From a virus: a DNA stretch of 64,000 bases. The position numbers and the translations under genes were made by a program. Under the pieces are notes generated by a model. It ran no database searches. It was not told the origin of the DNA and saw only the letters and a list, made by a program, of their open reading frames with translations. The DNA lies in IMG/VR virus record IMGVR_UViG_3300028364_001588; one strand, 5' to 3'. Shown here piece after piece: positions 2,991 through 63,999 of the stretch; position 1 is the stretch's first letter; each line of letters opens with the position of its first letter.

Positions 2991-3289
2991 TTTTCTGAAG
3001 GGTTTTGTGATTCAGAGCCCCCATCAGAACCTATACCAAGGTCTTCAGAAGATTCTTTTGTATTTTTTGTCTGCACCATTGATTGGGCTATTTGAATCAT
3101 GAAGTGCTCATTTTCTTGCATCACACCGTTTATCCTGTGCAGTTCAGACATTTCGCTCTTAAGCTTAGAAACAAGGTTAACTTCCTTGTCTCTATTGCTT
3201 AAAAGAGCCATAATGTTATCCATAACAACAGTTCTATCCTCTGATAGAGAAGTCATTACTTTGGATAATATGTCTAATTGGGTTGCCAT
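2987..3289 (-). CDS. hypothetical coiled-coil protein
   Basis: 100-aa ORF within the operon. Confidence 0.65.
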   Translation of the reverse strand: MATQLDILSKVMTSLSEDRTVVMDNIMALLSNRDKEVNLVSKLKSEMSELHRINGVMQENEHFMIQIAQSMVQTKNTKESSEDLGIGSDGGSESQNPSEK

Positions 3290-3750
3290 TAGTTTGATTC
3301 TGCAGATACTCTTGAAATCTCTACGTCAAGGTCTTGGTGATATACATCAACAATTGTAGAAAGCGCAACTCCAGTAGTTTCGAAATCAAACATTGCATCT
3401 TCAAGGTTGTTCTCAAGATTTGTAGTAGCGTCTTGTACAGACGTAGCCTCAATCATGTAGTTCTGCTTTGTCTTGCTTATTTTTCCGTTGTCATCTTCAT
3501 CAGAAATAGTGATTTTTCCTAAATACCAATGTCCTCCTTCGTTATTTCTGATAATTTCAGTAATCTCAGTAACTGACATAGCATGCACAAGGAATTCTCC
3601 AGATGCAGTTTGGCCTATTTCTTTATTTATTCTTGCTTCAGCATCAGTGAAAGATACTGCTGGAAGTAAAAAGGCTTCATTTAATTTCTTAACCTCTTCG
3701 TCTTCTCCGATTTTGTTGTACTTTACCTTTACGGTATACCATCTGTTCAT
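3289..3750 (-). CDS. DUF4494 family protein (Bacteroidota-type)
   Basis: WYTVKVKY...AVSFTDAEARI pattern typical of DUF4494. Confidence 0.8.
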   Translation of the reverse strand: MNRWYTVKVKYNKIGEDEEVKKLNEAFLLPAVSFTDAEARINKEIGQTASGEFLVHAMSVTEITEIIRNNEGGHWYLGKITISDEDDNGKISKTKQNYMIEATSVQDATTNLENNLEDAMFDFETTGVALSTIVDVYHQDLDVEISRVSAESN

Positions 3751-3774
3751 AATGTATTGTTTTAATTATTTGTA

Positions 3775-3805
3775 CAAATGTAAAGATTTCTACAATAAAA
3801 AACAA
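3775..3805 (-). promoter_or_regulatory. Bacteroidota-type housekeeping promoter (-33 TTG / -7 TAnnTTTG)
   Basis: TACATTTG at 3775-3782 (minus strand) with TTG 20 bp upstream. Confidence 0.65.
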
Positions 3806-3808
3806 CAC

Positions 3809-4456
3809 TTATCTATGAATTCTGTGATTGTTGGTGCTCATTGATTTGGTATCGAATATTCCCATACCTTTATTATTACCTGCTCCACCAGCTTGTCTAA
3901 GGTTCTTTTTAGTATTTAGATTACTTTGATTTAGATTGTCAAGCTGCTGGTTAACCCACTCTTTTCCAGAATCTCCACCATGAAGCTCCCAGGCTTGAAT
4001 TGGTCCAGAGTTTTGAATTGTCTTACCCGCAGCTTTGTCGGCATTGTAAGCTTCTTGACCTGTTTCAAAAAAAGATTTCATCTTCTTCATCATGTCGTAA
4101 CCCTGAGTTTGCTTAGAAGCAAGCTCTTTGGCTTTATTAAGACCTGAACCGTGACCAGTTCCAGATTGTGTTTGATTGTTTCCTGAAACAGCATTAAGCG
4201 CTTCTTGAGCTCTTTGTGCTACATTTGGCGGAGGAGTAAATGATTTATTATTATCAAACGTAACCGCTTCAAACAAAACTTTTCTAATTATTTTTCTAAC
4301 TTCATTCATCGCCATGGTTCTTTCCCATATCTCTTGATTGAATTCTGGCTCTTCTGGTCTTTGTTGTCCAAATTGAAGGACGTGAAGTTGGTCCATAGTA
4401 TATCCTACAGCCAAATAATCATCCACTTCGTCTTCGTATACGTATACGTAAGTCAT
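3809..4456 (-). CDS. phage head-associated hypothetical protein
   Basis: FTPPxxVAxxAxxAL...KMKSFF...AWELHGGDSGKEWV conserved phage motif; internal VRKIIRKVLFE motif. Confidence 0.65.
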   Translation of the reverse strand: MTYVYVYEDEVDDYLAVGYTMDQLHVLQFGQQRPEEPEFNQEIWERTMAMNEVRKIIRKVLFEAVTFDNNKSFTPPPNVAQRAQEALNAVSGNNQTQSGTGHGSGLNKAKELASKQTQGYDMMKKMKSFFETGQEAYNADKAAGKTIQNSGPIQAWELHGGDSGKEWVNQQLDNLNQSNLNTKKNLRQAGGAGNNKGMGIFDTKSMSTNNHRIHR

Positions 4457-4938
4457 TATGACATCATTTTAAGAATAGCAGACTTAATGTCTTGAGGAAG
4501 CTTAGATGAAAACCCAAGGTTAGCGAGATTCCAGTTTACTTCATCATAAAAAGCTATATTATTAACAGGAGCACCTGATTCAAGAGTTCTTCTAATGCTA
4601 ATCATAAGACCTTCTCCTTCTCTAAGTGCAATATTGTTTCCTTGAGCACCTTGATATTGAGTAGGGTTTTCATACATGCTATCAACAATAGTGCTAACAC
4701 TCTTTCCTTGATTTACTGCATGCTGACCTCCTGCACTATCGTTTCCGCCCATGAAATTACCTCTCTGACCTTCTCTTAGTCCAGCGTTCTTTTCTCCAGA
4801 AGAAAGCTCTGAAAGCCTTTTGTAATCTTCCTGAAGTTTTTCTGCATTAGTCTCTTCTCTTTCTTCCTTAAAGATTTCTCCTTGAGTTTCGAATGACTGT
4901 GTAAGCTTGCGCATTCTATCTTTTTCGTTTTCTTTCAT
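4456..4938 (-). CDS. hypothetical protein
   Basis: 160-aa ORF within the operon. Confidence 0.7.
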   Translation of the reverse strand: MKENEKDRMRKLTQSFETQGEIFKEEREETNAEKLQEDYKRLSELSSGEKNAGLREGQRGNFMGGNDSAGGQHAVNQGKSVSTIVDSMYENPTQYQGAQGNNIALREGEGLMISIRRTLESGAPVNNIAFYDEVNWNLANLGFSSKLPQDIKSAILKMMS

Positions 4939-4950
4939 TGTAATATATTT

Positions 4951-5409
4951 TTACCAAGTAACTGCTCCTATTCCCATATCTCCAGAATAAAATCTGATAG
5001 ATTTAGGAACCATTGATTTGTAAATTTTTTCGAGGTCAAACTTAGGACTTGCAACCATTGAGTTAGTAGAGTTATTTGGCATATCTCCATCAAGGTCAAT
5101 GTCTCCATTGTCATCTACTATTTCATTCAAACTTTCATCTCCTTCTGTTGATTGAGAAAGAAAGTCTACTATAAAATATTTGAATATGTCTTGGAATTGG
5201 TCTTTGTTCTTTTCGACCCAACCTTTAAAGTCTGAAGTTTTAACAACAAGATTAGCTTTTTTTCCATAGGTAGTAATGAAATCAATCTTAATGTCTTCGC
5301 CATCAAAATTAACATCAATAACTTTATCTATCTCACCTGGAGATAAACTTACTACTTCTTCGCCTTCTTTTAGAAGAACGCTTAAACATATGTCTTTTAG
5401 TTTTTTCAT
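4951..5409 (-). CDS. hypothetical protein (late)
   Basis: 152-aa ORF with TATTTATT at 5423-5430 and N-terminal LKDICLSVLLKE. Confidence 0.7.
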   Translation of the reverse strand: MKKLKDICLSVLLKEGEEVVSLSPGEIDKVIDVNFDGEDIKIDFITTYGKKANLVVKTSDFKGWVEKNKDQFQDIFKYFIVDFLSQSTEGDESLNEIVDDNGDIDLDGDMPNNSTNSMVASPKFDLEKIYKSMVPKSIRFYSGDMGIGAVTW

Positions 5410-23871: not shown

Positions 23872-24297
23872 CTATTTATTTCTTCTAATAATTTAGTTTC
23901 AAAATCATTTTCTTTTATCTCATTACCCCCAGAATCTAACTAAATTATAACCATTTTCTTTGGCTAATTTATTTTTAAACTTATCATTTTCAACATTTAT
24001 CACTTGAGTTTCATTTAAAGTTTTATACAACTTAGGATGTCCATGCCAGTAATCTCCATCTGCTTCAATTAATAAATTATATTCTGGTAAGTAAAGGTCA
24101 TAAATTTTATATTTAATATCATCAAAATAAACGTAAAAAGACTTTTCAAATTCAATATTATTATCATTAAGTAATTCGCCAAACATTGGCTTTTTGCCTT
24201 CAAACTGCTTTACCATATCACTTAATACTTCTGGAGAATATGTTCTTCCATTCAAATTTTCTTTATTAGCAATAGCTAAAATACCTTCTATTTTCAT
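23850..24297 (-). pseudogene. chimaeric remnant: gp21-like prohead-protease N-terminus joined to a Vsr/DUF559-like endonuclease domain, frameshifted
   Basis: EGILAIANKENLNGRTYS...FGEL followed by YDLYLPEYNLLIEADGDYWHG. Removing one G from the run at 23926-23930 extends the frame to RFWGNEIK...RWEKKLE* (stop 23850), overlapping the sbcC ATG. Confidence 0.65.
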
Positions 24298-26787: not shown

Positions 26788-26807
26788 AATTTTGTTTTAT
26801 AAAACAT

Positions 26808-26840
26808 AAAAAAAGCCCTTGACAATATCAAGAGCTTTTT
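26808..26840 (-). terminator. intrinsic terminator ending the structural operon
   Basis: AAAAAGCTCTTGA-N5-TCAAGGGC followed by a T-run on the minus strand. Confidence 0.7.
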
Positions 26841-26854
26841 CAAATTTGTTATAT

Positions 26855-26995
26855 TTAGATTTGGCTTATAATCTTCTTGTTCTTCACAGCAAATACAAAT
26901 TCGCCTTGCTCACCTATGCGTCTTGAAAAATTAATGGCAGAACCTATATAAGCCCTGCCATTAATCATATTCTTTATTTTGTAAATTCCAGCCAT
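26855..26995 (-). pseudogene. truncated GIY-YIG endonuclease remnant
   Basis: Manual translation MAGIYKIKNMINGRAYIGSAINFSRRIGEQ...* (46 aa). Confidence 0.75.
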
Positions 26996-27016
26996 AACTA
27001 ACTAATAATCAAGTCG

Positions 27017-36829: not shown

Positions 36830-37039
36830 ATGGAAGTTACTCAAGAAAATATAAACGGAACTGTAATAAACAGAACGGATAGCGAAATGTCATGGAGACT
36901 AATTCACGATGGAAACAGGGTTATAGACTTGTTTGAATCGTCTGGAACCACTGTGACCATGTATGATATTTTCCTGGCATCAACCTTAGAAGAGTGTCAA
37001 GCTCAAATCTATTCCTTAGATTTAGACTATAACCCTTAA
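36830..37039 (+). CDS. small protein (possible fibre chaperone)
   Basis: ATG 2 nt after the LRR stop. Confidence 0.55.
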   Translation: MEVTQENINGTVINRTDSEMSWRLIHDGNRVIDLFESSGTTVTMYDIFLASTLEECQAQIYSLDLDYNP

Positions 37040-37911
37040 AGACCTTGAGAAAGATTGAAGAACGTTTGCGCTCTATTAATATTGCTTCTCTCTTCTTTAA
37101 CATCAATGTTACCATCAGAAAACTGTTTCTTCCTTGTAACAAGATTGTATTGTCTATAAAGATTTCCATTGTCATCAAATATTGAGTAAACTCCAGTCTC
37201 AAGGTCTCTTGTTGAGTCTCCGTAAAGAACGTAGCTTAATGTTTTGATTGACTGGTCTACCATTTCAACTTCAACCATAACAGGGTCAAAGAAAGTGTTT
37301 GATATAAGTATTTGCTGACCTGATTTACCAAGGTCAGAACTAACAGTGTTGGTTATTAGACTTGCTTCATCTGGAGTAAGTGTAAGAAATAATTGATTTC
37401 CATTAGGGTCAATTACATAAGTAGTAGAACTTGCGTTTGTTGTGTTATTGTTTGGGTTAACACTTACAAGGTCAGAGCTTGTAATTATTCTATGAAAGTT
37501 TTTAATCTTAACACCATTATCATCAAAATACTCCATTTGGTATCCCACAAGACTTCCAGTGCTTTGAAACTGTAGCTTTGGTATGATTATACCTTTTTTA
37601 GAAATTTGTATCTCCTGGTCGTTATTTGTTATGACGAATGAACAGTCAACTATTTCTGTTTGAAATATTTTTGGCCTAATTAAAAGCAAGTAAAACCCAA
37701 GTTGGTTGAATATGCTGGCTGGAAGTCTTAATTTATATCCACCATCTCCACCAAGCATTTTTCTAAATTCATTATTAGTAACACTATTGTATATTGGTTG
37801 GAAACTTGTGTCACCAAGCGATTCTCTATTTGGAGAATAAGAATATAACACATCAACATCGTTAAAATCTGCGTCACTGAGCTTCACAGTACCATAAGTT
37901 CCTACAGCCAT
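37036..37911 (-). CDS. virion structural protein (target of homing-endonuclease insertion)
   Basis: 291-aa ORF; N-terminus MAVGTYGTVKL is duplicated at 39489-39527. Confidence 0.75.
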   Translation of the reverse strand: MAVGTYGTVKLSDADFNDVDVLYSYSPNRESLGDTSFQPIYNSVTNNEFRKMLGGDGGYKLRLPASIFNQLGFYLLLIRPKIFQTEIVDCSFVITNNDQEIQISKKGIIIPKLQFQSTGSLVGYQMEYFDDNGVKIKNFHRIITSSDLVSVNPNNNTTNASSTTYVIDPNGNQLFLTLTPDEASLITNTVSSDLGKSGQQILISNTFFDPVMVEVEMVDQSIKTLSYVLYGDSTRDLETGVYSIFDDNGNLYRQYNLVTRKKQFSDGNIDVKEERSNINRAQTFFNLSQGL

Positions 37912-38837
37912 AGTTTTTCTTTTTTATATAAATAATCGGAAATAATTTTATTAACATTTTTTAAATCAAAATAAGGTATTCTCAAAAGGTTAATACCACT
38001 TTTTTTACAATACTCTGTTTTTAATATATCTCTCTGTTTCATTTCCTTAAACTTTATTTTTGCTATAGATTTATCAAAATATAACCTCCAAGGCTCATAG
38101 TGATATTCTCCATCGTATTCTATACATATATTATAATATTGTAAATAGAAATCAAATTTAAGGTGTCTATTTGTCTTAGCGTTCCTGCAATCATCAAAAA
38201 TCTTTTGCTTCTCAAAATCTACATTATTTTTCTTTAAAAATAAAGCCACTTTTCTCTCTCCTTTGGATTCAGAACACTTTTGACAACCAGAACCCATCAG
38301 ATGTATATATGGTTTTTGCTCAAACTCCCCGTGTATTGGACACATTATATTGATGGGCTTGTCATATCTTTCATAGGCAGTTTTCGAATAATCATATTTA
38401 TTATCATGCTTTTCTGATGCATCATCAATGAAGTCTTCTGTAGTCCTGCCGACTCCAGCGCATTTTGGACAACCATTTCCATTAAGGTGTTGATTTGGTT
38501 TCTGCGCAAAATCACCATGCTTAATACAACTAATAACAACTTTAATTTTATTTCCAATATATTTCACCTTTGAGTAGTTGTATCTATCTCCATGAACGTC
38601 CTTTGCTTTTTTAACAAACTCTTTAGTATTTCCGTTTTTATTTCCAGCGCAAATTGAGCAGCCATTTTTAGCTGATACATGTCCATTTGGACTTTGTTCA
38701 AATACACCATGGTCTACACATACAATTTTAATCTTCGTTGAGTTATTTTTGTAATTCACCAAAGAGTAATCATACTTATATCCATGGATGATTTTTGCTT
38801 TTTTAATAAATTCTTCTGTTGTTAGTTTTCTTGGCAT
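37902..38837 (-). CDS. putative homing endonuclease (DUF723-like Zn-finger repeats plus Vsr/DUF559-like nuclease)
   Basis: Three YDYS...CxxHG.F.Q.P..H...GCxxC repeats; ESKGE, FDFY and IEYDGEYH. Confidence 0.82.
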   Translation of the reverse strand: MPRKLTTEEFIKKAKIIHGYKYDYSLVNYKNNSTKIKIVCVDHGVFEQSPNGHVSAKNGCSICAGNKNGNTKEFVKKAKDVHGDRYNYSKVKYIGNKIKVVISCIKHGDFAQKPNQHLNGNGCPKCAGVGRTTEDFIDDASEKHDNKYDYSKTAYERYDKPINIMCPIHGEFEQKPYIHLMGSGCQKCSESKGERKVALFLKKNNVDFEKQKIFDDCRNAKTNRHLKFDFYLQYYNICIEYDGEYHYEPWRLYFDKSIAKIKFKEMKQRDILKTEYCKKSGINLLRIPYFDLKNVNKIISDYLYKKEKLWL

Positions 38838-38924
38838 AAGCCTTTTATTATAAATACATAAGATTTTTAAAAATCAACATCAGCTAATTTTATATTGATT
38901 AAAAATATTTCCATATTTATTAAT

Positions 38925-39476
38925 ATGGACACTATCAGGCTTATAATTAGAGAAGAAATCCGCATCATATTAAACGAAGAACGTCAAGGTGGTGGCTTAA
39001 GTCAGTTTATTAAGAACTGGGGCGATTTTGTATTAGATATTTCTGATTATAGAGAACAAGATTTAGCACAGCTATATAAAGAGGGGGCCAATTCTCTAAG
39101 GTTTAATCTGGAACATAAAGAATTAATTTATCGTGGGATGTCAGTTAATGATGAATGGCTTAATCAATTTATGAAAAGTGATTCTATAAGGTTAGGTAAA
39201 TTCTGGTCTTTCGATAAAGTTGTTAGCAAAGATTTCATGCAAGCTCCAGATGTTTATGATGATGAATTTTCTAAGTTTAAAGGGAAAAATAAATTGTTTA
39301 TTATAGCTAAAGCTCCTGGGTATTTAAGTCATATTGATGTTGATGCTACGGTTGCTCATGGAATTGTCTCATCAGAAAGTGAATTAAGGCTATTAAAAGG
39401 CGCTCCACTTGACGTGGTTTCAATAAAGTTTAACGGCAAGGAGTTGAACTTCGAGAACAAGAATCTAACTTCTTAA
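38925..39476 (+). CDS. ADP-ribosyltransferase-like protein (R-S-E type) with head-protein-type N-terminus
   Basis: IYRGM...FWS...ESELRL; MDTIRLIIREEI; TATTTATT at 38914-38921. Confidence 0.55.
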   Translation: MDTIRLIIREEIRIILNEERQGGGLSQFIKNWGDFVLDISDYREQDLAQLYKEGANSLRFNLEHKELIYRGMSVNDEWLNQFMKSDSIRLGKFWSFDKVVSKDFMQAPDVYDDEFSKFKGKNKLFIIAKAPGYLSHIDVDATVAHGIVSSESELRLLKGAPLDVVSIKFNGKELNFENKNLTS

Positions 39477-39527
39477 TAAAAACACTTTATCTGCTAATTT
39501 AACTGTTCCGTAAGTTCCTACTGCCAT
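39465..39527 (-). pseudogene. orphaned original 5' end of the 37036..37911 gene
   Basis: MAVGTYGTVKLADKVFLLRS* preceded by TATTTATA at 39543-39550. Confidence 0.8.
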
Positions 39528-39571
39528 AGTCTTTTTGTTTAATATAAATAATTCATAAAAAAAATAAAACC

Positions 39572-40402
39572 TTAAAGAGAAAACTCTATAAGTTCAAGGC
39601 CTCCATCTTCTTTGTATATGTCCAAATTTAGTTTTAAAGTTTCTCTCAAAGTAGAAAAATTAGATTCAAAAAATTCAAAATCAGTTTGTTTAGAGTTTAT
39701 TATTGTTTCATAAAGATAATTTGCTCCACCAAAATCCGTTATGCTGCCGTCTTTTAGTATTTGTTCTGCAAAAATTAAGAGCCTAAATGAATGCCAAATT
39801 TCCTTCACAGCCCTATATAAATCTCCATTTGAATTAAATTTGCTCTTGGCTATGTTCCAAAGGTCATCTGATTCGAATTTAACTTTGTTTATAAGTTTAT
39901 CACTATCTATGTCAACTGAAAAAGTCTTGTTGTCAATTATAATAAAATTTTCAGGATAGCTAAGAGATTCGATTTCACGCATTTCATGGTTGTCTAATTT
40001 GTTTTGAAAGTCTTCTTGAGAAAAAATGTGAACATCAAAATCGTTTCCATCTATATTTGTTTCTCTAAAAACGTTTCCACTAATATCAGTTGATATTGCT
40101 ATTAAATCCCAGTCAGAACCAACGCCATCAACACCATAAAGCCTTGAGCCTTTTACAGAAGCTAATTGTATTGATTCAATATTGACGCCTATGTTTTCAA
40201 ACACACTCTCAATATCAACAGGTAATTCAATCTTATCTGATGCAGATTTTAATTTAGAAACATTTAAAAAAACAGGGTTTATATCAATGTTTTTAACGAT
40301 TAGTTCTTGTTGTTTTTTGTAACCAATTTTAGTGTTTACGTTCTCATCTGTTTCGAGATTAATATCTACGAACCCTTGTAGTATAATATGTGTTCTTGCC
40401 AT
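39572..40402 (-). CDS. Pol-beta superfamily nucleotidyltransferase
   Basis: GSRLYG...SDWDL, third Asp in DVHI, helical C-terminal WHSFR. Confidence 0.7.
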   Translation of the reverse strand: MARTHIILQGFVDINLETDENVNTKIGYKKQQELIVKNIDINPVFLNVSKLKSASDKIELPVDIESVFENIGVNIESIQLASVKGSRLYGVDGVGSDWDLIAISTDISGNVFRETNIDGNDFDVHIFSQEDFQNKLDNHEMREIESLSYPENFIIIDNKTFSVDIDSDKLINKVKFESDDLWNIAKSKFNSNGDLYRAVKEIWHSFRLLIFAEQILKDGSITDFGGANYLYETIINSKQTDFEFFESNFSTLRETLKLNLDIYKEDGGLELIEFSL

Positions 40403-40415
40403 TTTTATATTTATT

Positions 40416-40499
40416 TTACAATGTCTTATTTGCTACTGATATTTTAGCTTTTTTTTGATAAAACCTACTGCTCCATTAGATTTTAAAACTATAACTCAT
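40416..40499 (-). pseudogene. collapsed gene remnant
   Basis: MSYSFKI*WSSRFYQKKAKISVANKTL*; ATG coupled to the upstream stop. Confidence 0.35.
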
Positions 40500-41140
40500 C
40501 AATAATATCCGTAGCCGTAATTATCTCCTGTAGAATCATCTCCATTGTCTGGGATGAAATCATTCATCACTTCTGTTATATTTTCAAAATAAACCCTCGC
40601 TCTATCGGTTTGGCTATAGCTTCTTCTTATAAAAACAGGGATATAATAACTTGGTTCATATGTAAATGTGGTAAGCGCTGAAAATACTTTTAACTCTCGC
40701 TCTGTTCCGTTAATACTCAGAGGGATATGCTGAAGACCTTTTGATGGTGCTACACCGTTGTACTTAAAAGCTATAGTGTCGATTACAGTCATACCAGTTG
40801 TGCCAACAAGGCTGTTTTCTATAACTTCAGAAGGAGGAAACTGATTGTTCACAACACTTGAATTATAGTAATTATTAAACACATCTGACAATTTTTGGTC
40901 GCTATTGTAAATCTCTCCAAACTCAACAGTTGTTGTTGCTCCAGTTAAATAAGAATAAAAATCATTTATGATAACTAAGTTATCATTGTTATTTAAAAAA
41001 TTTCTAACATTAGAATAGTTAACAATACCGTTTCCAAGCCCTTGAATTTTATTCACCTGGTATCCATTCACATTTTGTAAAGTAGAATTAACTGTCGATG
41101 TTTCTCCAGTAAGTGTGATTAATATTTTGTGCTTTTGCAT
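40499..41140 (-). CDS. virion structural protein
   Basis: N/T-rich ORF in the structural operon. Confidence 0.6.
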   Translation of the reverse strand: MQKHKILITLTGETSTVNSTLQNVNGYQVNKIQGLGNGIVNYSNVRNFLNNNDNLVIINDFYSYLTGATTTVEFGEIYNSDQKLSDVFNNYYNSSVVNNQFPPSEVIENSLVGTTGMTVIDTIAFKYNGVAPSKGLQHIPLSINGTERELKVFSALTTFTYEPSYYIPVFIRRSYSQTDRARVYFENITEVMNDFIPDNGDDSTGDNYGYGYY

Positions 41141-46998: not shown

Positions 46999-47332
46999 TT
47001 ATACTAAATTAATAGACTCAATTTTTTCTTTGACTGGGTTAAATAACAAAATGTTTTCAACACCACCTTCGGTTATAATAACCCCATCATAATTGCTGTG
47101 TAACCAATTTAAAACACCCCTCGTTCTTTCTATTAGATTTGAGGGTAGTTTTATAAACAAACTCACCATAACTTGAAGCTTCATTTTTATTTGGTGAAAA
47201 AAACGTCCCATCATAAACATGTCCTATATCATTAAAATCATGTTTATTTGGAGTCCCATGATAAATAACACTATGATTTTTATGGAGGATATTAGTTATT
47301 TCTTCTTGAATTATTTCACGAATCTTATTCAT
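46999..47332 (-). pseudogene. ADP-ribosyltransferase-like (ART-PolyVal-type) gene broken by an internal deletion/frameshift
   Basis: Frame 1: MNKIREIIQEEI...YHGT...GTFFS...ASSYG. Frame 2 after about 47130: YDGVII...LFNP. Confidence 0.6.
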
Positions 47333-48236
47333 GATTATAAATAGTTAATAATTCTTTTTTAGTTATTGAACAATTATGGTTTTTCATTAGATTATCTTCC
47401 CATGGAATCATTTCTAAATTTATAATATTTCCAATTATCTCTGGGTCTATATTATTTCTAAACCCTTTTGCAATCGAAAACCTATGGTCAAGGTGATAAT
47501 TTCCATCTACTCCAGCTTGACCTCTCTTGTTGTAGTTTTCTAATGTATCAAGAGGTTGTTGATTTGTTATTGTTCGAACTTTTTGATAATACTTCTTGAA
47601 TTCTGGGAGTATCTCTTGATATTTCTTATAGGTATATCCAGTTCTTTGTAGGTATATGTGGTCATATGCTCCAGATTCTTTTTTTAATTTCCTTGTTTTT
47701 CTTACTTTATTTTTATGCTCTTCAGATATAACCTTGTCGAGCATGCCTTTATGTTTATCTTCTACCCTAATTATATTTAACTTTTTAAGAATTTTATTCA
47801 CTCCAGAATATGACATACCAATGATATTTGCTACTTCTGGAATTGGTATTCCACTTAAGTAAAGGATTTTAATTTCTTCTGTTTTTGGATTTTTATAATT
47901 TTCTCTATATCCTGGTTTTCTTAAATCAACCTCATTATCTCTCAATATTTTCAGAACCGAAGGTTTAGAACACCCGATAATTTTAGCTATCTCAATTGAT
48001 GTTTTCTCTTCATTAACATATAAATAAACAACCTTGTCTACAGGAAGTTTACTACCTCTTTTAACGCCTTTTTTAGCTTTACTTATACTGCGTGTGGAGT
48101 ATCCGTTTCTCTTGATGATTTTTGATACTCCTGTAGAGCTTATACCAACTTCTTTGGCTACCTTTGTGGTAGACATCTTTTTATTGATGTATAAATCAAT
48201 TATTTTATCCTCTATTTCTTTGTTTAATTTTTTCAT
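47325..48236 (-). CDS. putative HNH homing endonuclease with N-terminal HTH repeats
   Basis: Three LY...S...IA..IG.S...V.KIL repeats; YHLDHRFS...NLEMIPWEDNLMK; TATTTATT at 48259-48266. Confidence 0.7.
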   Translation of the reverse strand: MKKLNKEIEDKIIDLYINKKMSTTKVAKEVGISSTGVSKIIKRNGYSTRSISKAKKGVKRGSKLPVDKVVYLYVNEEKTSIEIAKIIGCSKPSVLKILRDNEVDLRKPGYRENYKNPKTEEIKILYLSGIPIPEVANIIGMSYSGVNKILKKLNIIRVEDKHKGMLDKVISEEHKNKVRKTRKLKKESGAYDHIYLQRTGYTYKKYQEILPEFKKYYQKVRTITNQQPLDTLENYNKRGQAGVDGNYHLDHRFSIAKGFRNNIDPEIIGNIINLEMIPWEDNLMKNHNCSITKKELLTIYNHE

Positions 48237-61783: not shown

Positions 61784-61822
61784 TTATTCAAATGTTGTAT
61801 ATCCTCCACGTATGAAGTGTAT
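61784..61822 (-). pseudogene. orphaned original 3' end of the A1-like gene
   Basis: IHFIRGGYTTFE* versus the current end IHFIRGCFTTLD*. Confidence 0.8.
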
Positions 61823-62748
61823 TTATATAAATAAAATTTTTACCTATTTATAAATTATGAAAACAAATAAGTTTATAGAAGAGTCGATTAAAATTCATGG
61901 AAATCGCTATAATTATAAAAACACAAAATACACAAACGCAAGAACTAAAATTAAAATAATTTGCCCAGAACACAATGAGTTTGAACAGTTGCCTGGAAAT
62001 CACAAAAGAGGTAATGGATGTCCTAAGTGTATTTATAACAAATTAACTAAAAAAGAAGTTTTAAAGCAATTTAAAAAAATACATGGAGATAAATATGATT
62101 ATTCTTTAATTGATTACAATGGAGATAATGTTAAAGTAAAAATAATTTGTTCAGAACATGGAGTATTTAAACAAGTTCCAGGAATACACAAATTAGGTAG
62201 TGGTTGCAAAAAATGCGCTGGACTTGAGAAATTAGATAATGAAAAAGTGGTGGAGCAATTTAAAGAAACACATGGAGATAAATATAATTATTCTTTAATT
62301 AACTATATTAATGCTCATACAAAAGTTAATATTATATGTCCAGAGCATGGAAGGTGGAGACAAACTCCAAATAATCATAAAAACGGAAATGGGTGTCCTA
62401 TATGTAAAGAATCTAAAGGAGAAAGAAAAATCAGAAATTTATTAAATGAAAATAAAGTCAATTTCATCTCGCAATATAAATTTAAAGATTGCAAAAATAT
62501 ATTGCAATTACCTTTCGATTTTTATTTACCAGAATATAATATATGCATTGAATACAATGGAATGCAACATTATAAACCAATTGAACACTTTGGGGGTAGA
62601 CTTGGTTTCAAAAAAAGAATTATTAATGATAATATAAAAAAAGGATATTGTGAAAAAAACAATATCCTTTTAATAACTATTAACTACAACGAAGATGTAG
62701 AGAAAAAACTTAATCTAAAGTGGTAAAACACCCTCGTATAAAGTGTAT
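61823..62748. mobile_element. homing-endonuclease cassette B (endonuclease + recoded host-gene end)
   Basis: Bounded by two versions of the same last 12 codons plus stop (29/39 nt identical). Confidence 0.75.
61857..62726 (+). CDS. putative homing endonuclease (DUF723-like Zn-finger repeats plus Vsr/DUF559-like nuclease)
   Basis: Three HG..Y.Y...IICPEH...H..G.GCxxC repeats; ESKGE, PFDFYL and IEYNGMQH; paralogue of 37902..38837. Confidence 0.82.
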   Translation: MKTNKFIEESIKIHGNRYNYKNTKYTNARTKIKIICPEHNEFEQLPGNHKRGNGCPKCIYNKLTKKEVLKQFKKIHGDKYDYSLIDYNGDNVKVKIICSEHGVFKQVPGIHKLGSGCKKCAGLEKLDNEKVVEQFKETHGDKYNYSLINYINAHTKVNIICPEHGRWRQTPNNHKNGNGCPICKESKGERKIRNLLNENKVNFISQYKFKDCKNILQLPFDFYLPEYNICIEYNGMQHYKPIEHFGGRLGFKKRIINDNIKKGYCEKNNILLITINYNEDVEKKLNLKW

Positions 62749-63999
62749 CTGCTGGGCTTTTCCATCTGAGTGAATAATTGAGTGTGATTGCAACCACGGG
62801 CTTGCTCCAATATTATATCCAACTCTAAGAATTGTAGAAGTTCCTACTTGAATTACTCCATCCATACGGCCTGGAGAGTGTGAATGTCCAATAATCATTT
62901 TTGTACTCAACTTTCTAAACTGAACAATTGACCCACGACTACCTGAAGCTCCGATGTCTCCATGTTGTCCAACTTCCCATTCATGAATTCTATGAGTGTG
63001 GCTTCTGCCCAGTGTAATGAAATTAGGAAACTTTTCGTTAATCAAATAAGGAATAACTCCATCTGGAGCATCTTCCCCAAGCAACAAAGCCGCATAGTTC
63101 ATGTAACAAAGAGAGTTTTTCATTGTTGACTCTTTTCTCCAATCAACATCTCTAAGCCATCTGTCAAGGAAATCATCATGATTACTTCTAACTATGACTG
63201 TCTTATATTCTCTGAATGCCTCAAGGCCATCAAGCATAAAATCAATCTCTTTTTTAAGGTCGTTCTTTCCAGAGATTTCCTTTTTGTATTGAGCAAACGC
63301 ATCCTTTCTGTCGTGATGACTAATAGAGTGTCCGTCAAAAACATCATGAAGAACTACCTCTTTAGGCTTCAGCTTTTTAAACAAAACATTTAAAGTTGTA
63401 TTCATTACATCTTTATCTGTTTCGCCAAAGTGAATATCCCCAAGAATAGCGCCATCAATAGACTTATTTCTCTTTATAACTGTTTTACCAATCAACTCTT
63501 CTCCTTGAAATGTTAGGCCAGGTATTAAATCAACCTCTTCATAACCACCATCAAAAGACACATTATAATAAAGGTCGTTAAAATTACCATCTTCCGTTGC
63601 AGTGACTTGCCTTGTGTAAAAAACTTCTTCATCTTTAATCTCAACAACAACAAAACCAAGGGTGTGGTGAAACTCTCCTTTCTTTCCTGCTTTTGAGTCT
63701 GTATAATTTTCTAAAGTTACAGCTCCAGTTGTCATCATCATCTTTGGTGCTGTACCTTCTAATGCAGAAACCATTTTCATTTGCATCTTAGGGTGTCCAA
63801 ATATAGATGATTCTGGTCCAGAAAAACCTTCCAATGCTGTCATTGGGTTTGTGGCTGTAGGAGAAATTTTGACATCACCACAAACAATCAATCGCTTGTG
63901 AGCATTTTGTCTTGCGGCAAATAAATAAGGCTCTACTCTTGAGTGCCATGATTCAAAATCTTTATCATCAAATACAGATGTTGGATTTTTGTATCTACC
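62710..63999 (-). CDS. T5 A1-like calcineurin-type metallophosphoesterase/nuclease, 5' end outside the window
   Basis: TTGAVT..NYT..KAG.K.EFHH, GDIH, HD, SNHD, HGD and GHSH; frame open to the window edge. Confidence 0.7.
   Translation of the reverse strand, partial: GRYKNPTSVFDDKDFESWHSRVEPYLFAARQNAHKRLIVCGDVKISPTATNPMTALEGFSGPESSIFGHPKMQMKMVSALEGTAPKMMMTTGAVTLENYTDSKAGKKGEFHHTLGFVVVEIKDEEVFYTRQVTATEDGNFNDLYYNVSFDGGYEEVDLIPGLTFQGEELIGKTVIKRNKSIDGAILGDIHFGETDKDVMNTTLNVLFKKLKPKEVVLHDVFDGHSISHHDRKDAFAQYKKEISGKNDLKKEIDFMLDGLEAFREYKTVIVRSNHDDFLDRWLRDVDWRKESTMKNSLCYMNYAALLLGEDAPDGVIPYLINEKFPNFITLGRSHTHRIHEWEVGQHGDIGASGSRGSIVQFRKLSTKMIIGHSHSPGRMDGVIQVGTSTILRVGYNIGASPWLQSHSIIHSDGKAQQIHFIRGCFTTLD

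Follow-up and report, generated by a model that had tools for sequence, protein, structure and literature searches.

A free-standing homing endonuclease gene very probably occupies the 5′ end of a target gene in this phage DNA and spreads by intronless homing, and a gene for an ADP-ribosyltransferase-like (ART-like) protein was nested in the locus later. The locus lies in a stretch of 64,000 nt (IMG/VR record IMGVR_UViG_3300028364_001588), which was analysed as a whole (from here: the window). On the minus strand, a target gene of 291 aa without a known family (37036..37911) is preceded by the endonuclease gene of 311 aa (37902..38837), whose ORF overlaps the new ATG of the target gene by 10 nt. 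The endonuclease ORF begins and ends with start and stop codons of its own, and its frame is not that of the target gene. No intron family was recovered when positions 36900–40500 were scanned against Rfam by E-value, in agreement with the earlier note, made from the sequence, which had described a free-standing endonuclease without an intron.

Approximately 80 nt are duplicated at this locus, consisting of a promoter-like motif and codons 1–16 of the target gene. The downstream copy is a variant that overlaps the 3′ end of the endonuclease ORF and heads the intact target gene. The upstream copy has the native sequence and is now a dead stub. A repeat search independently detected the corresponding direct repeat (37883–37936 and 39499–39552), which is 54 nt long, 83% identical and separated by 1616 nt. 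All cassette features between 37873 and 39550 were found where the earlier note had placed them, and a recount of the working and the orphaned gene start again gave 12 of 13 residues and 27 of 39 nt in common, with codons 6–13 all different.

The orphan ORF (39465..39527, minus strand) consists of 13 native codons followed by seven unrelated codons and a stop. Its native part, equivalent to codons 1–13 of the target gene (39489..39527, minus strand), matches the DNA of insert-free alleles and not the working copy of the window, whereas the out-of-context codons with the stop (39465..39488, minus strand) correspond, when reverse-complemented, to the 3′ terminus of the ART-like gene together with its 3′ flank. 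The earlier note had recognized this 13-codon copy and had missed a second piece of the orphan at 38867..38890 (minus strand), which carries the native codons 10–16 plus a stop and is located directly upstream of the promoter-like motif of the endonuclease gene. The second piece also exists in L006, L095, L106 and L090 and is decayed in L012. Between lineages it is 73–91% identical, compared with only 39–63% at the four-fold sites of the adjacent gene. The same overall arrangement recurs in the independent ENA contig L009 and in L090, a different phage background. Because of this recurrence, the duplicated start is no assembly artefact.

The motif TATTTATA is found three times at the locus on the minus strand. 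The orphaned one at 39543..39550 is native to the target gene, with position and flanks as in the insert-free alleles L001, L002 and L091; the motif assigned to the endonuclease gene by its enrichment and position upstream of the ATG is at 38849..38856; and the second copy belonging to the target gene is at 37927..37934, inside the 3′ end of the endonuclease ORF and within the 54-nt direct repeat, where it is kept in all insert-bearing alleles. The ART-like gene has a variant, TATTTATT, a short distance before its ATG. In the window, TATTTATA occurs 29 times versus 7.7 expected, and 12 of these 29 copies are located 4–29 nt upstream of the ATG of ORFs of at least 100 aa. This enrichment and positioning suggest a promoter-like function. 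Consensus sigma-70 promoter and terminator models yielded nothing informative for positions 36900–40500.

Seven insert-bearing alleles (window/L009, L090, L006, L095, L096, L106 and L012/L110) were compared with at least 11 insert-free alleles. The uninterrupted alleles predicted by the earlier note, with the codons and promoter region of the orphan, exist in close relatives, among them L001, L002, L091 and L093. In these, the upstream gene is followed by a spacer of ~45 nt and then by the target gene, and the promoter region and the first 13 codons correspond to the orphan copy, not to the working copy. The endonuclease stop codon lies on or beside the target gene ATG in 7 of 7 insert-bearing alleles; in every one of them the working motif and the ATG are inside or overlap the 3′ end of the endonuclease ORF, as the proposed replacement start and promoter would have it.

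Measured against the insert-free consensus, insert-bearing alleles exceed insert-free ones in mismatch most strongly at nt 19–48 of the target gene (codons 7–16); of 214 sliding windows across the whole gene, the seven highest fall here. The variant stretch differs from allele to allele, and the largest excess divergence within the gene falls on codons 9–14 of the working copy (37870..37887, minus strand). The suggested recoding of the gene start was therefore right in that insert-bearing alleles differ most at codons 7–16; the changes are only partly synonymous, with residues 11, 12 and 14 among those replaced. In insert-free alleles, codons 9–14 are the putative core of the endonuclease recognition sequence, and the candidate cut site was placed from the allele differences and from where the stub breaks.

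Among close relatives the nuclease gene is present or absent at this one locus, scattered over the target gene tree, on which supported branches force at least four changes of the insert state. Identity between the window and L090 is ~100% over the stretch that runs from orphan codon 7 into the middle of the endonuclease gene, compared with 65–88% on either side. Judged by this pattern, the tract is a recent exchange with its left edge within the orphan. It ends inside the endonuclease gene and therefore reflects recombination of two insert-bearing genomes rather than a fresh invasion. In this exchange, the ART-like gene moved along with a portion of the endonuclease gene. No long co-conversion tract was visible in the target gene among the sampled genomes, since all of these are 75–86% identical, and no donor–recipient pair was caught among them.

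The ART-like ORF (38925..39476, plus strand) is divergent from the endonuclease gene. It belongs to a captured segment of 598 nt (38891..39488, plus strand), which also holds the TATTTATT motif of this ORF, ~25 nt from the 3′ terminus of a GIY-YIG endonuclease ORF and, on the 3′ side, ~12 nt of flanking DNA. This segment is bounded by 12-nt direct repeats of target sequence (38879–38890 and 39489–39500), and its flanking sequences have homology to the native loci in L087 and L117, where the gene is at its usual place, with a GIY-YIG homing endonuclease gene on one side and a RuvC-like gene on the other. The window has its own copy of this home locus upstream of the RuvC-like gene (26788..27016, minus strand), in which only a decayed GIY-YIG stub ORF (26855..26995) and no ART-like gene is present. 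A precise cut-and-paste transfer from 26788–27016 was rejected because ~12 nt of the same 3′ flank are kept at both places; a copy made before the original was lost, or acquisition from a related genome, would fit better.

We propose that, in a mixed infection, the enzyme would cut insert-free alleles at or near codons 9–14 of the target gene and that the cassette would be copied from the donor genome during repair. The donor would be spared because its working copy carries substitutions in this stretch. The stub might act as a short left homology arm for the exchange and possibly as a binding site of the enzyme. The promoter-plus-ORF segment of 598 nt would have entered the stub at the putative target site, leaving a 12-nt duplication, and both junctions show short microhomologies. 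Its source would be the GIY-YIG/RuvC-like locus where relatives keep the gene, and a break at the still target-like stub, followed by repair, appears as the most likely route of capture.

More tentatively, and with less confidence than doubt, the orphan site may be considered a working part of the element. It would provide a left homology arm whatever gene is located upstream, a non-cleavable operator-like site and a break-prone landing pad. As parts of this joint reading, the non-cleavable binding site would sit beside the endonuclease promoter, as in I-TevI-type autorepression, and microhomology-mediated repair would capture genes from other homing endonuclease loci, here the ART-like gene. 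If this were true, single-gene selfish elements could grow into multi-gene mobile cassettes.

The endonuclease, the replacement start and the ART-like gene could instead form one cassette with the ART-like gene as its regular cargo, as the earlier note had it. The two genes are indeed adjacent and divergent, each with its own promoter-like motif; the nearly identical tract shared with L090 comprises the orphan and the ART-like gene as well as the first half of the endonuclease gene, which consequently moved together at least once; and relatives of the ART-like gene also adjoin homing endonuclease genes of another family. Yet four other insert-bearing lineages (L006, L095, L106 and L012), most of a small sample, lack the ART-like gene. 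Moreover, this gene splits the orphan between the 12-nt repeats, its 5′ flank retains the end of the GIY-YIG endonuclease ORF from another locus, and a 64% identical relative resides in an unrelated, early-gene-like context without an endonuclease gene. We consider a common cassette unlikely; instead of being core cargo, the ART-like gene is a later insert nested in the orphan.

Returning to the homing of a free-standing nuclease, the encoded enzyme combines three zinc-finger (DUF723/DUF4379) repeats with a C-terminal domain that is Vsr/EDxHD-like by its residue pattern. It matches phrog_559 (1.8e-73) and the Pfam family DUF723, while a DUF2726 match (E = 0.0065) is below the cut-off of that family. 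Residues E194, D229, E240, G243, H246, D270 and K273 are invariant among 26–49 homologues, and E194, D229, H246 and D270 align with the corresponding positions of 3r3p. The profile of the nuclease domain found 3r3p (the catalytic domain of I-Bth0305I) first among solved structures, followed by AbaSI, at non-significant E-values of 0.45–0.51. The HNH endonuclease label of phrog_559 was rejected: the Pfam scan contained no HNH family, the cysteine pairs belong to the DUF723/DUF4379 treble-clef repeats and the C-terminal domain is Vsr-like in its residue pattern. In a nucleotide search of GenBank phages only short matches of ~71% to the endonuclease gene were obtained.

The intact catalytic-type residues also bear on the idea that the endonuclease is an old immobile resident, perhaps a domesticated regulator, so that its patchiness would reflect repeated loss and the variant codons drift. 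An old association is indicated by L012/L110, which kept the insert despite a target protein of only 68% identity and a higher G+C content. The state of L103 resembles a loss: no endonuclease gene is found in the available 111 nt upstream, yet variant codons and an insert-type spacer are present, as expected if the two promoter copies had recombined and thereby removed the gene, and L103 is sister to the insert-bearing L095 on the target gene tree. A conserved target-like stub beside the endonuclease promoter would suit an operator as well, for which I-TevI offers a precedent (PMC2988022). Against immobility speak, in addition to the invariant catalytic-type residues, the concentration of the divergence on one 30-nt stretch that varies from allele to allele, a clustering of the insert state on the tree that does not exceed the one obtained with shuffled labels, and the near-identical, recently exchanged tract in the window and L090. 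Hence, we judge an immobile resident to be improbable, somewhat more so than a common cassette. Finally, a local tandem duplication or assembly error in which the endonuclease is not involved is extremely improbable: assemblers can be misled by short repeats in AT-rich DNA, but the structure is found in independent assemblies and two genomic backgrounds, native-start remnants precede the endonuclease gene in five lineages, and a second cassette of the same design is present in the window.

The assignment of the target gene to a baseplate or tail-like virion region follows from its neighbourhood, in which a baseplate wedge gene is located. Its product has 677 homologues; no Pfam or PHROG family was found for it, its profile matched nothing in the PDB at E < 1, and its Atlas model has a pLDDT of 0.36. 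The 'structural' label given to it before thus comes from the neighbourhood. The further label 'jumbo phage' was not established, as contigs with the exact protein are ~101–147 kb in size.

As the rule for intronless homing is described, substitutions in a conserved gene close by allow self to be discriminated from non-self (PMC13565253, PMC2988022). Gene hybrids made by mobile endonuclease ORFs (mORFs) are known from fungal mitochondria, i.e. from atp6 of Allomyces macrogynus and from atp6, atp9, cox2 and nad3 of Glomus (PMC3630166). There too, an endonuclease ORF has settled within a conserved gene or at its end, and a copy of the terminal segment of this gene is present on either side of the ORF; the in-frame copy is divergent and the displaced native copy has the sequence of insert-free relatives. 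Those mORFs involve duplicated C-termini, mitochondrial genes and GIY-YIG or LAGLIDADG enzymes (PMC3630166), whereas here we find a phage host, a zinc-finger plus Vsr-like enzyme and a duplicated 5′ end with a promoter-like motif. The T4 genes for SegB, SegF, SegG and MobE likewise are free-standing nuclease genes between conserved genes, patchy among relatives, with overlapping ORFs and with substitutions in the neighbouring gene separating self from non-self; in a limited check of this literature, covering parts of PMC2988022, PMC2330249, PMC2790892 and PMC13565253, no displaced terminal duplicate or second promoter copy inside the endonuclease ORF was described.

The enzyme shares the C-terminal E, D, H and D residues and the spacing of 17 residues from D to H with I-Bth0305I and the Hef-type EDxHD enzymes (PMC3239194, PMC2677866), at a similarity below significance. 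It differs from these by three DUF723/DUF4379 zinc-finger repeats at the N-terminus instead of NUMOD or HTH modules, and from the intron- or intein-borne EDxHD and Vsr-like enzymes by its free-standing gene (PMC3239194, PMC2677866). Repeated DNA-binding modules of the DUF723/CapR zinc-finger type are also described for homing endonucleases of the ICP1 phages, where recombination tracts start or end at or within nuclease genes, similar to the window–L090 tract; the catalytic domains are T5orf172 or HNH, unlike here, and terminal duplications of target genes are not reported in the portion of that study considered (PMC10448857).

Homing endonuclease genes are major drivers of phage genome mosaicism, and their intronless entry into coding regions, as well as the co-travel of neighbouring genes, is understood mainly from T4. 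The locus offers a natural series of sensitive insert-free alleles, insert-bearing variants, an endonuclease-less variant and insert-bearing alleles with a nested captured gene. In this series a phage endonuclease gene would come with a promoter and a gene start of its own, as a 5′ equivalent of the C-terminal gene hybrids of mitochondria, and the leftover target stub can gain further genes. The candidate recognition site is narrowed to ~15–20 bp for an uncharacterised zinc-finger plus Vsr-like architecture, which makes the endonuclease directly testable. This type of enzyme might be useful as a scaffold for programmable specificity.

The ART-like protein consists of 183 aa. In an alignment of 21 sequences (A2), R70, G91, W94 (followed by S/T), E151 and E153 are invariant, and the R, S/T and ExE motifs are conserved in the expected order on the expected secondary structure elements. 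A fold made with A2 reached a pLDDT of 88.9; the single-sequence fold (pLDDT 34) was set aside. The top Foldseek matches of the model were almost all ARTs, at E-values of 0.054 or higher, and VIA-align gave Z-scores of 5.2 for KptA, 4.9 for IcmQ and 4.4 for the pertussis S1 subunit, which are within the noise range. No Pfam, PHROG or PDB sequence match was obtained for the protein and the A2 members, nor for the A2 profile against the PDB, and Pfam gave no informative domains for longer relatives (P0132, P0144, P0145 and others). A gene at ~47090–47344 was considered as a further family member; with an E-value of 0.57 against the A2 profile, the relationship was not supported. The protein resembles R-S-E ARTs (the cholera and pertussis A subunits and Vis) in having the R within a YRG-type motif, an aromatic-S/T and ExE in this order, and differs from them by its very small size and by fold scores in the noise range (Z ~4–5), so that its predicted identity as an ADP-ribosyltransferase is only suggestive. 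Alt, ModA and ModB of phage T4 are ADP-ribosyltransferases of the R-S-E clade.

The second cassette (61785..62726, plus strand) contains a paralogue from the same nuclease family (61857..62726) that is 43% identical to the first enzyme. It duplicates the 3′ end of another gene and hence has the same design at the opposite gene end, resembling the C-terminal cases of the mORFs. The orphaned native 3′ end and terminator of an A1-like gene are located at 61785–61820 (minus strand), and the insert-free L113 ends like this orphan. At both sites, the 5′ cassette and the 3′ cassette of the paralogue, insert-free relatives agree in sequence with the displaced copy.

ORF reading placed upstream of the 291-aa target gene (37036..37911, minus strand) a 311-aa endonuclease ORF (37902..38837, minus) whose 3′ end reaches 10 nt into that gene, then a 183-aa ADP-ribosyltransferase-like (ART-like) ORF (38925..39476, plus) running opposite to the other genes here, and finally an orphan ORF of 20 codons (39465..39527, minus). 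The orphan opens with a copy of the target gene's codons 1-13 and has a TATTTATA motif upstream. A repeat search returned a 54-nt direct repeat (37883-37936 and 39499-39552, 83%, spacing 1616 nt) and a 12-nt repeat (38879-38890 and 39489-39500, 11/12) corresponding to nt 28-39 of the target gene. Our recount of the two gene starts agreed with the earlier note: 12 of 13 residues and 27 of 39 nt are shared, and codons 6-13 all differ. The window has 29 occurrences of TATTTATA versus 7.7 expected, frequently 4-29 nt ahead of an ATG, and the motif is a plausible candidate phage promoter element. The label structural for the target protein is provisional and comes from its neighbourhood, which includes a baseplate wedge gene. 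An endonuclease-type gene with HNH/HTH PHROG matches (47325-48236, minus) adjoins the wedge gene, and the small ORF after it (~47090-47344) reached only E 0.57 with the profile of the ART-like family alignment (A2).

We compared ~30 fetched loci encoding the target protein, out of 677 metagenome homologues. The existence of an empty allele carrying the orphan's sequence had been predicted, and such alleles were found in L001 (93% protein identity), L091 (94%), L002 and L093. There, the target ATG lies ~45 nt past the end of the upstream gene, and the spacer and first 39 nt agree with the window's orphan, not with the working copy, i.e. the start in use. This promoter region and start of the target gene also stand directly behind the upstream gene in L003, L004, L007, L094, L099 and L101, where the upstream protein is another one (614-627 aa in L003, L094, L099 and L101), and are present in L098, where the upstream gene is out of view. 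Seven alleles (the window with its twin contig L009, L090, L006, L095, L096, L106, and the distant, G+C-richer L012/L110) have a homologue of the 311-aa ORF at the same place, its end on or beside the target ATG. The slot upstream (window 39572-40402, minus) is occupied by a 276-aa nucleotidyltransferase-like protein (phrog_388, 2.7e-08) in some loci and by an unrelated ~604-634-aa protein in others. In the window and L003, L006, L012, L094, L095, L099 and L101, the first 20-40 residues are common to all these proteins, which looks like a conserved N-terminal anchor with exchanged C-terminal modules. In L021, L025 and L026 (~3046-5044), an endonuclease of the same family lies directly downstream, not upstream, of a distant (33% identical) target-protein homologue.

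Nucleotides 28-36 of the target gene are nearly invariant among eleven insert-free alleles, while every insert-bearing allele has changes within nt 30-42, not the same ones between alleles. In a scan of 214 18-nt windows across the gene, scored as mismatch to the insert-free consensus in insert-bearing minus insert-free alleles, the top seven windows all start within nt 16-34. The orphan breaks after nt 39, and a second displaced piece, the native remnant (nt 28-48 plus a stop, window 38867-38890), lies immediately upstream of the promoter-like motif of the endonuclease gene. We infer a recognition and cleavage site of the endonuclease in or near codons 9-16 of insert-free alleles; carriers would be shielded by their substitutions there. 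The recoding proposed in the earlier note held in part: it is only partly synonymous, because several putatively protective changes alter residues 11, 12 and 14. Third-position differences in codons 6-9 are polymorphic among insert-free alleles, too.

In a tree of the target gene built without its first 60 nt, insert-bearing and insert-free states were intermixed (L090 is paired with insert-free L091, L096 with L093, the window with L001). Supported branches forced at least 4 state changes, and the state labels clustered no more than shuffled labels. L103, the sister of insert-bearing L095, has no endonuclease gene within the 111 nt of upstream sequence at hand; it has the insert-free-type T-run, yet variant codons and the insert-type spacer. 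Such a state is consistent with the endonuclease gene having been lost via recombination between the two promoter copies, which would leave a resistant allele. Between the window and L090, identity is ~100% over a tract that begins at orphan codon 7 (~39510) and ends midway through the endonuclease gene (~38340); it is 65-80% upstream of this tract and 80-88% downstream. To judge from these identities, the tract is a recent exchange with its left edge within the orphan, and shows that the orphan can apparently serve as a homology arm. Because the right edge lies within the endonuclease gene, the cassette was present in both partners before the exchange.

The endonuclease matched phrog_559 (1.8e-73), a PHROG labelled HNH; we set this label aside because residue pattern and spacing fit the EDxHD/Vsr-like family. 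Pfam gave three repeats of DUF723/DUF4379 treble-clef Zn fingers, and weak DUF2726/DUF5889 matches at the C-terminus. Such repeats are DNA-binding modules in phage homing endonucleases, according to PMC10448857. In 26-49 homologues on contigs of phages and giant viruses, E194, D229, E240, G243, H246, D270 and K273 of the C-terminal domain are kept. This residue pattern and a 17-residue D-to-H spacing are shared with the EDxHD/Vsr-like family (PMC3239194), so the motif supports a Vsr/EDxHD-like assignment; among solved structures, the best match of the domain profile was the I-Bth0305I catalytic domain (3r3p), followed by AbaSI, at only E ~0.5, not statistically significant. A third, partial Vsr-like nuclease domain match (23932-24174, minus; 32% over 90 residues, E 2.8e-05) is placed between SbcD-like and SbcC-like genes.

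A paralogue of the endonuclease, 43% identical (61857..62726, plus), shares 17 nt with the 3′ end of the A1-like gene (62710..63891), which is transcribed convergently. Past the paralogue follow an extra copy of that gene's last 12 codons and a hairpin with a T-run; in this second cassette (61785-62726) the native 3′ copy and terminator are displaced beyond the endonuclease gene. L113, on the same contig as L001, lacks the paralogue at this site, and its gene end has the displaced copy's codons. In both cassettes the endonuclease ORF extends at its 3′ end into the working gene's variant terminal segment, and its 5′ end and promoter-like motif adjoin the native remnant, a geometry that would hold the nuclease gene in tight linkage with the putatively protective variant.

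In intronless homing, self and non-self are by rule told apart by substitutions in the neighbouring conserved gene (PMC2988022 and PMC13565253). For fungal mitochondrial genes, duplication of a terminal segment on both sides of a mobile endonuclease ORF has been described; there, the displaced native copy agrees with the sequence of relatives, and the in-frame copy has diverged (PMC3630166). That paper also cites the case of Allomyces atp6. A limited check of the literature found no description of a version comprising a 5′ end plus promoter, or of such a design in phages. The 22-nt native remnant is 73-91% identical between lineages, whereas four-fold degenerate sites of their endonuclease genes are only 39-63% identical. 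It may have been refreshed via repeated recombination with insert-free alleles, or retained for function. As a hypothesis by analogy, it is a candidate binding site for the endonuclease: T4 I-TevI represses its own promoter via a homing-site-like operator (PMC2988022).

The ART-like gene had been taken for cargo of the cassette, a view contradicted by L006, L095, L106 and L012, in which the upstream gene comes next after the native remnant. The 12-nt repeats of the window and of L090 enclose a 598-nt segment. Relatives of the protein are few. A search of 1.8 billion representatives gave 25, with R70, G91, W94, E151 and E153 invariant in their alignment. The model from this alignment was confident (pLDDT 88.9), and its best PDB fold matches were ADP-ribosyltransferase folds (Vis, PARP13, pertussis and cholera A subunits, KptA/Tpt1, IcmQ), all weak (Foldseek E at least 0.054, Z at most 5.2); viral matches were uncharacterised proteins. 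We somewhat favour reading it as an ADP-ribosyltransferase, with a presumed activity.

Relatives with 77-79% identity (L117-L119, L087-L089) have a GIY-YIG/NUMOD3 homing endonuclease gene, intact or in decay, on one side and a gene for a RuvC-like resolvase on the other; a 64% relative has a different context and no endonuclease gene. The window's own GIY-YIG/RuvC locus (26788-27016) has no ART-like gene and retains a decayed 46-codon GIY-YIG stub (26855-26995, minus), flanked by a 367-aa gene and the gene for the RuvC-like resolvase. The window's ART-like segment retains, besides ~12 nt of native 3′ flank, ~25 nt with homology to the GIY-YIG ORF's 3′ end, and short matches between native locus and 12-nt target stretch occur at both junctions (6-10 nt and 5 nt). 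The segment appears to have entered the orphan by microhomology-mediated capture, probably while a break there was repaired; its source may be this genome or a related one. In L087-L089, the ART-like gene is split across two frames (L087:870-1377, frameshift near position 1012) beside a 61-aa GIY-YIG fragment, so both genes are in decay there.
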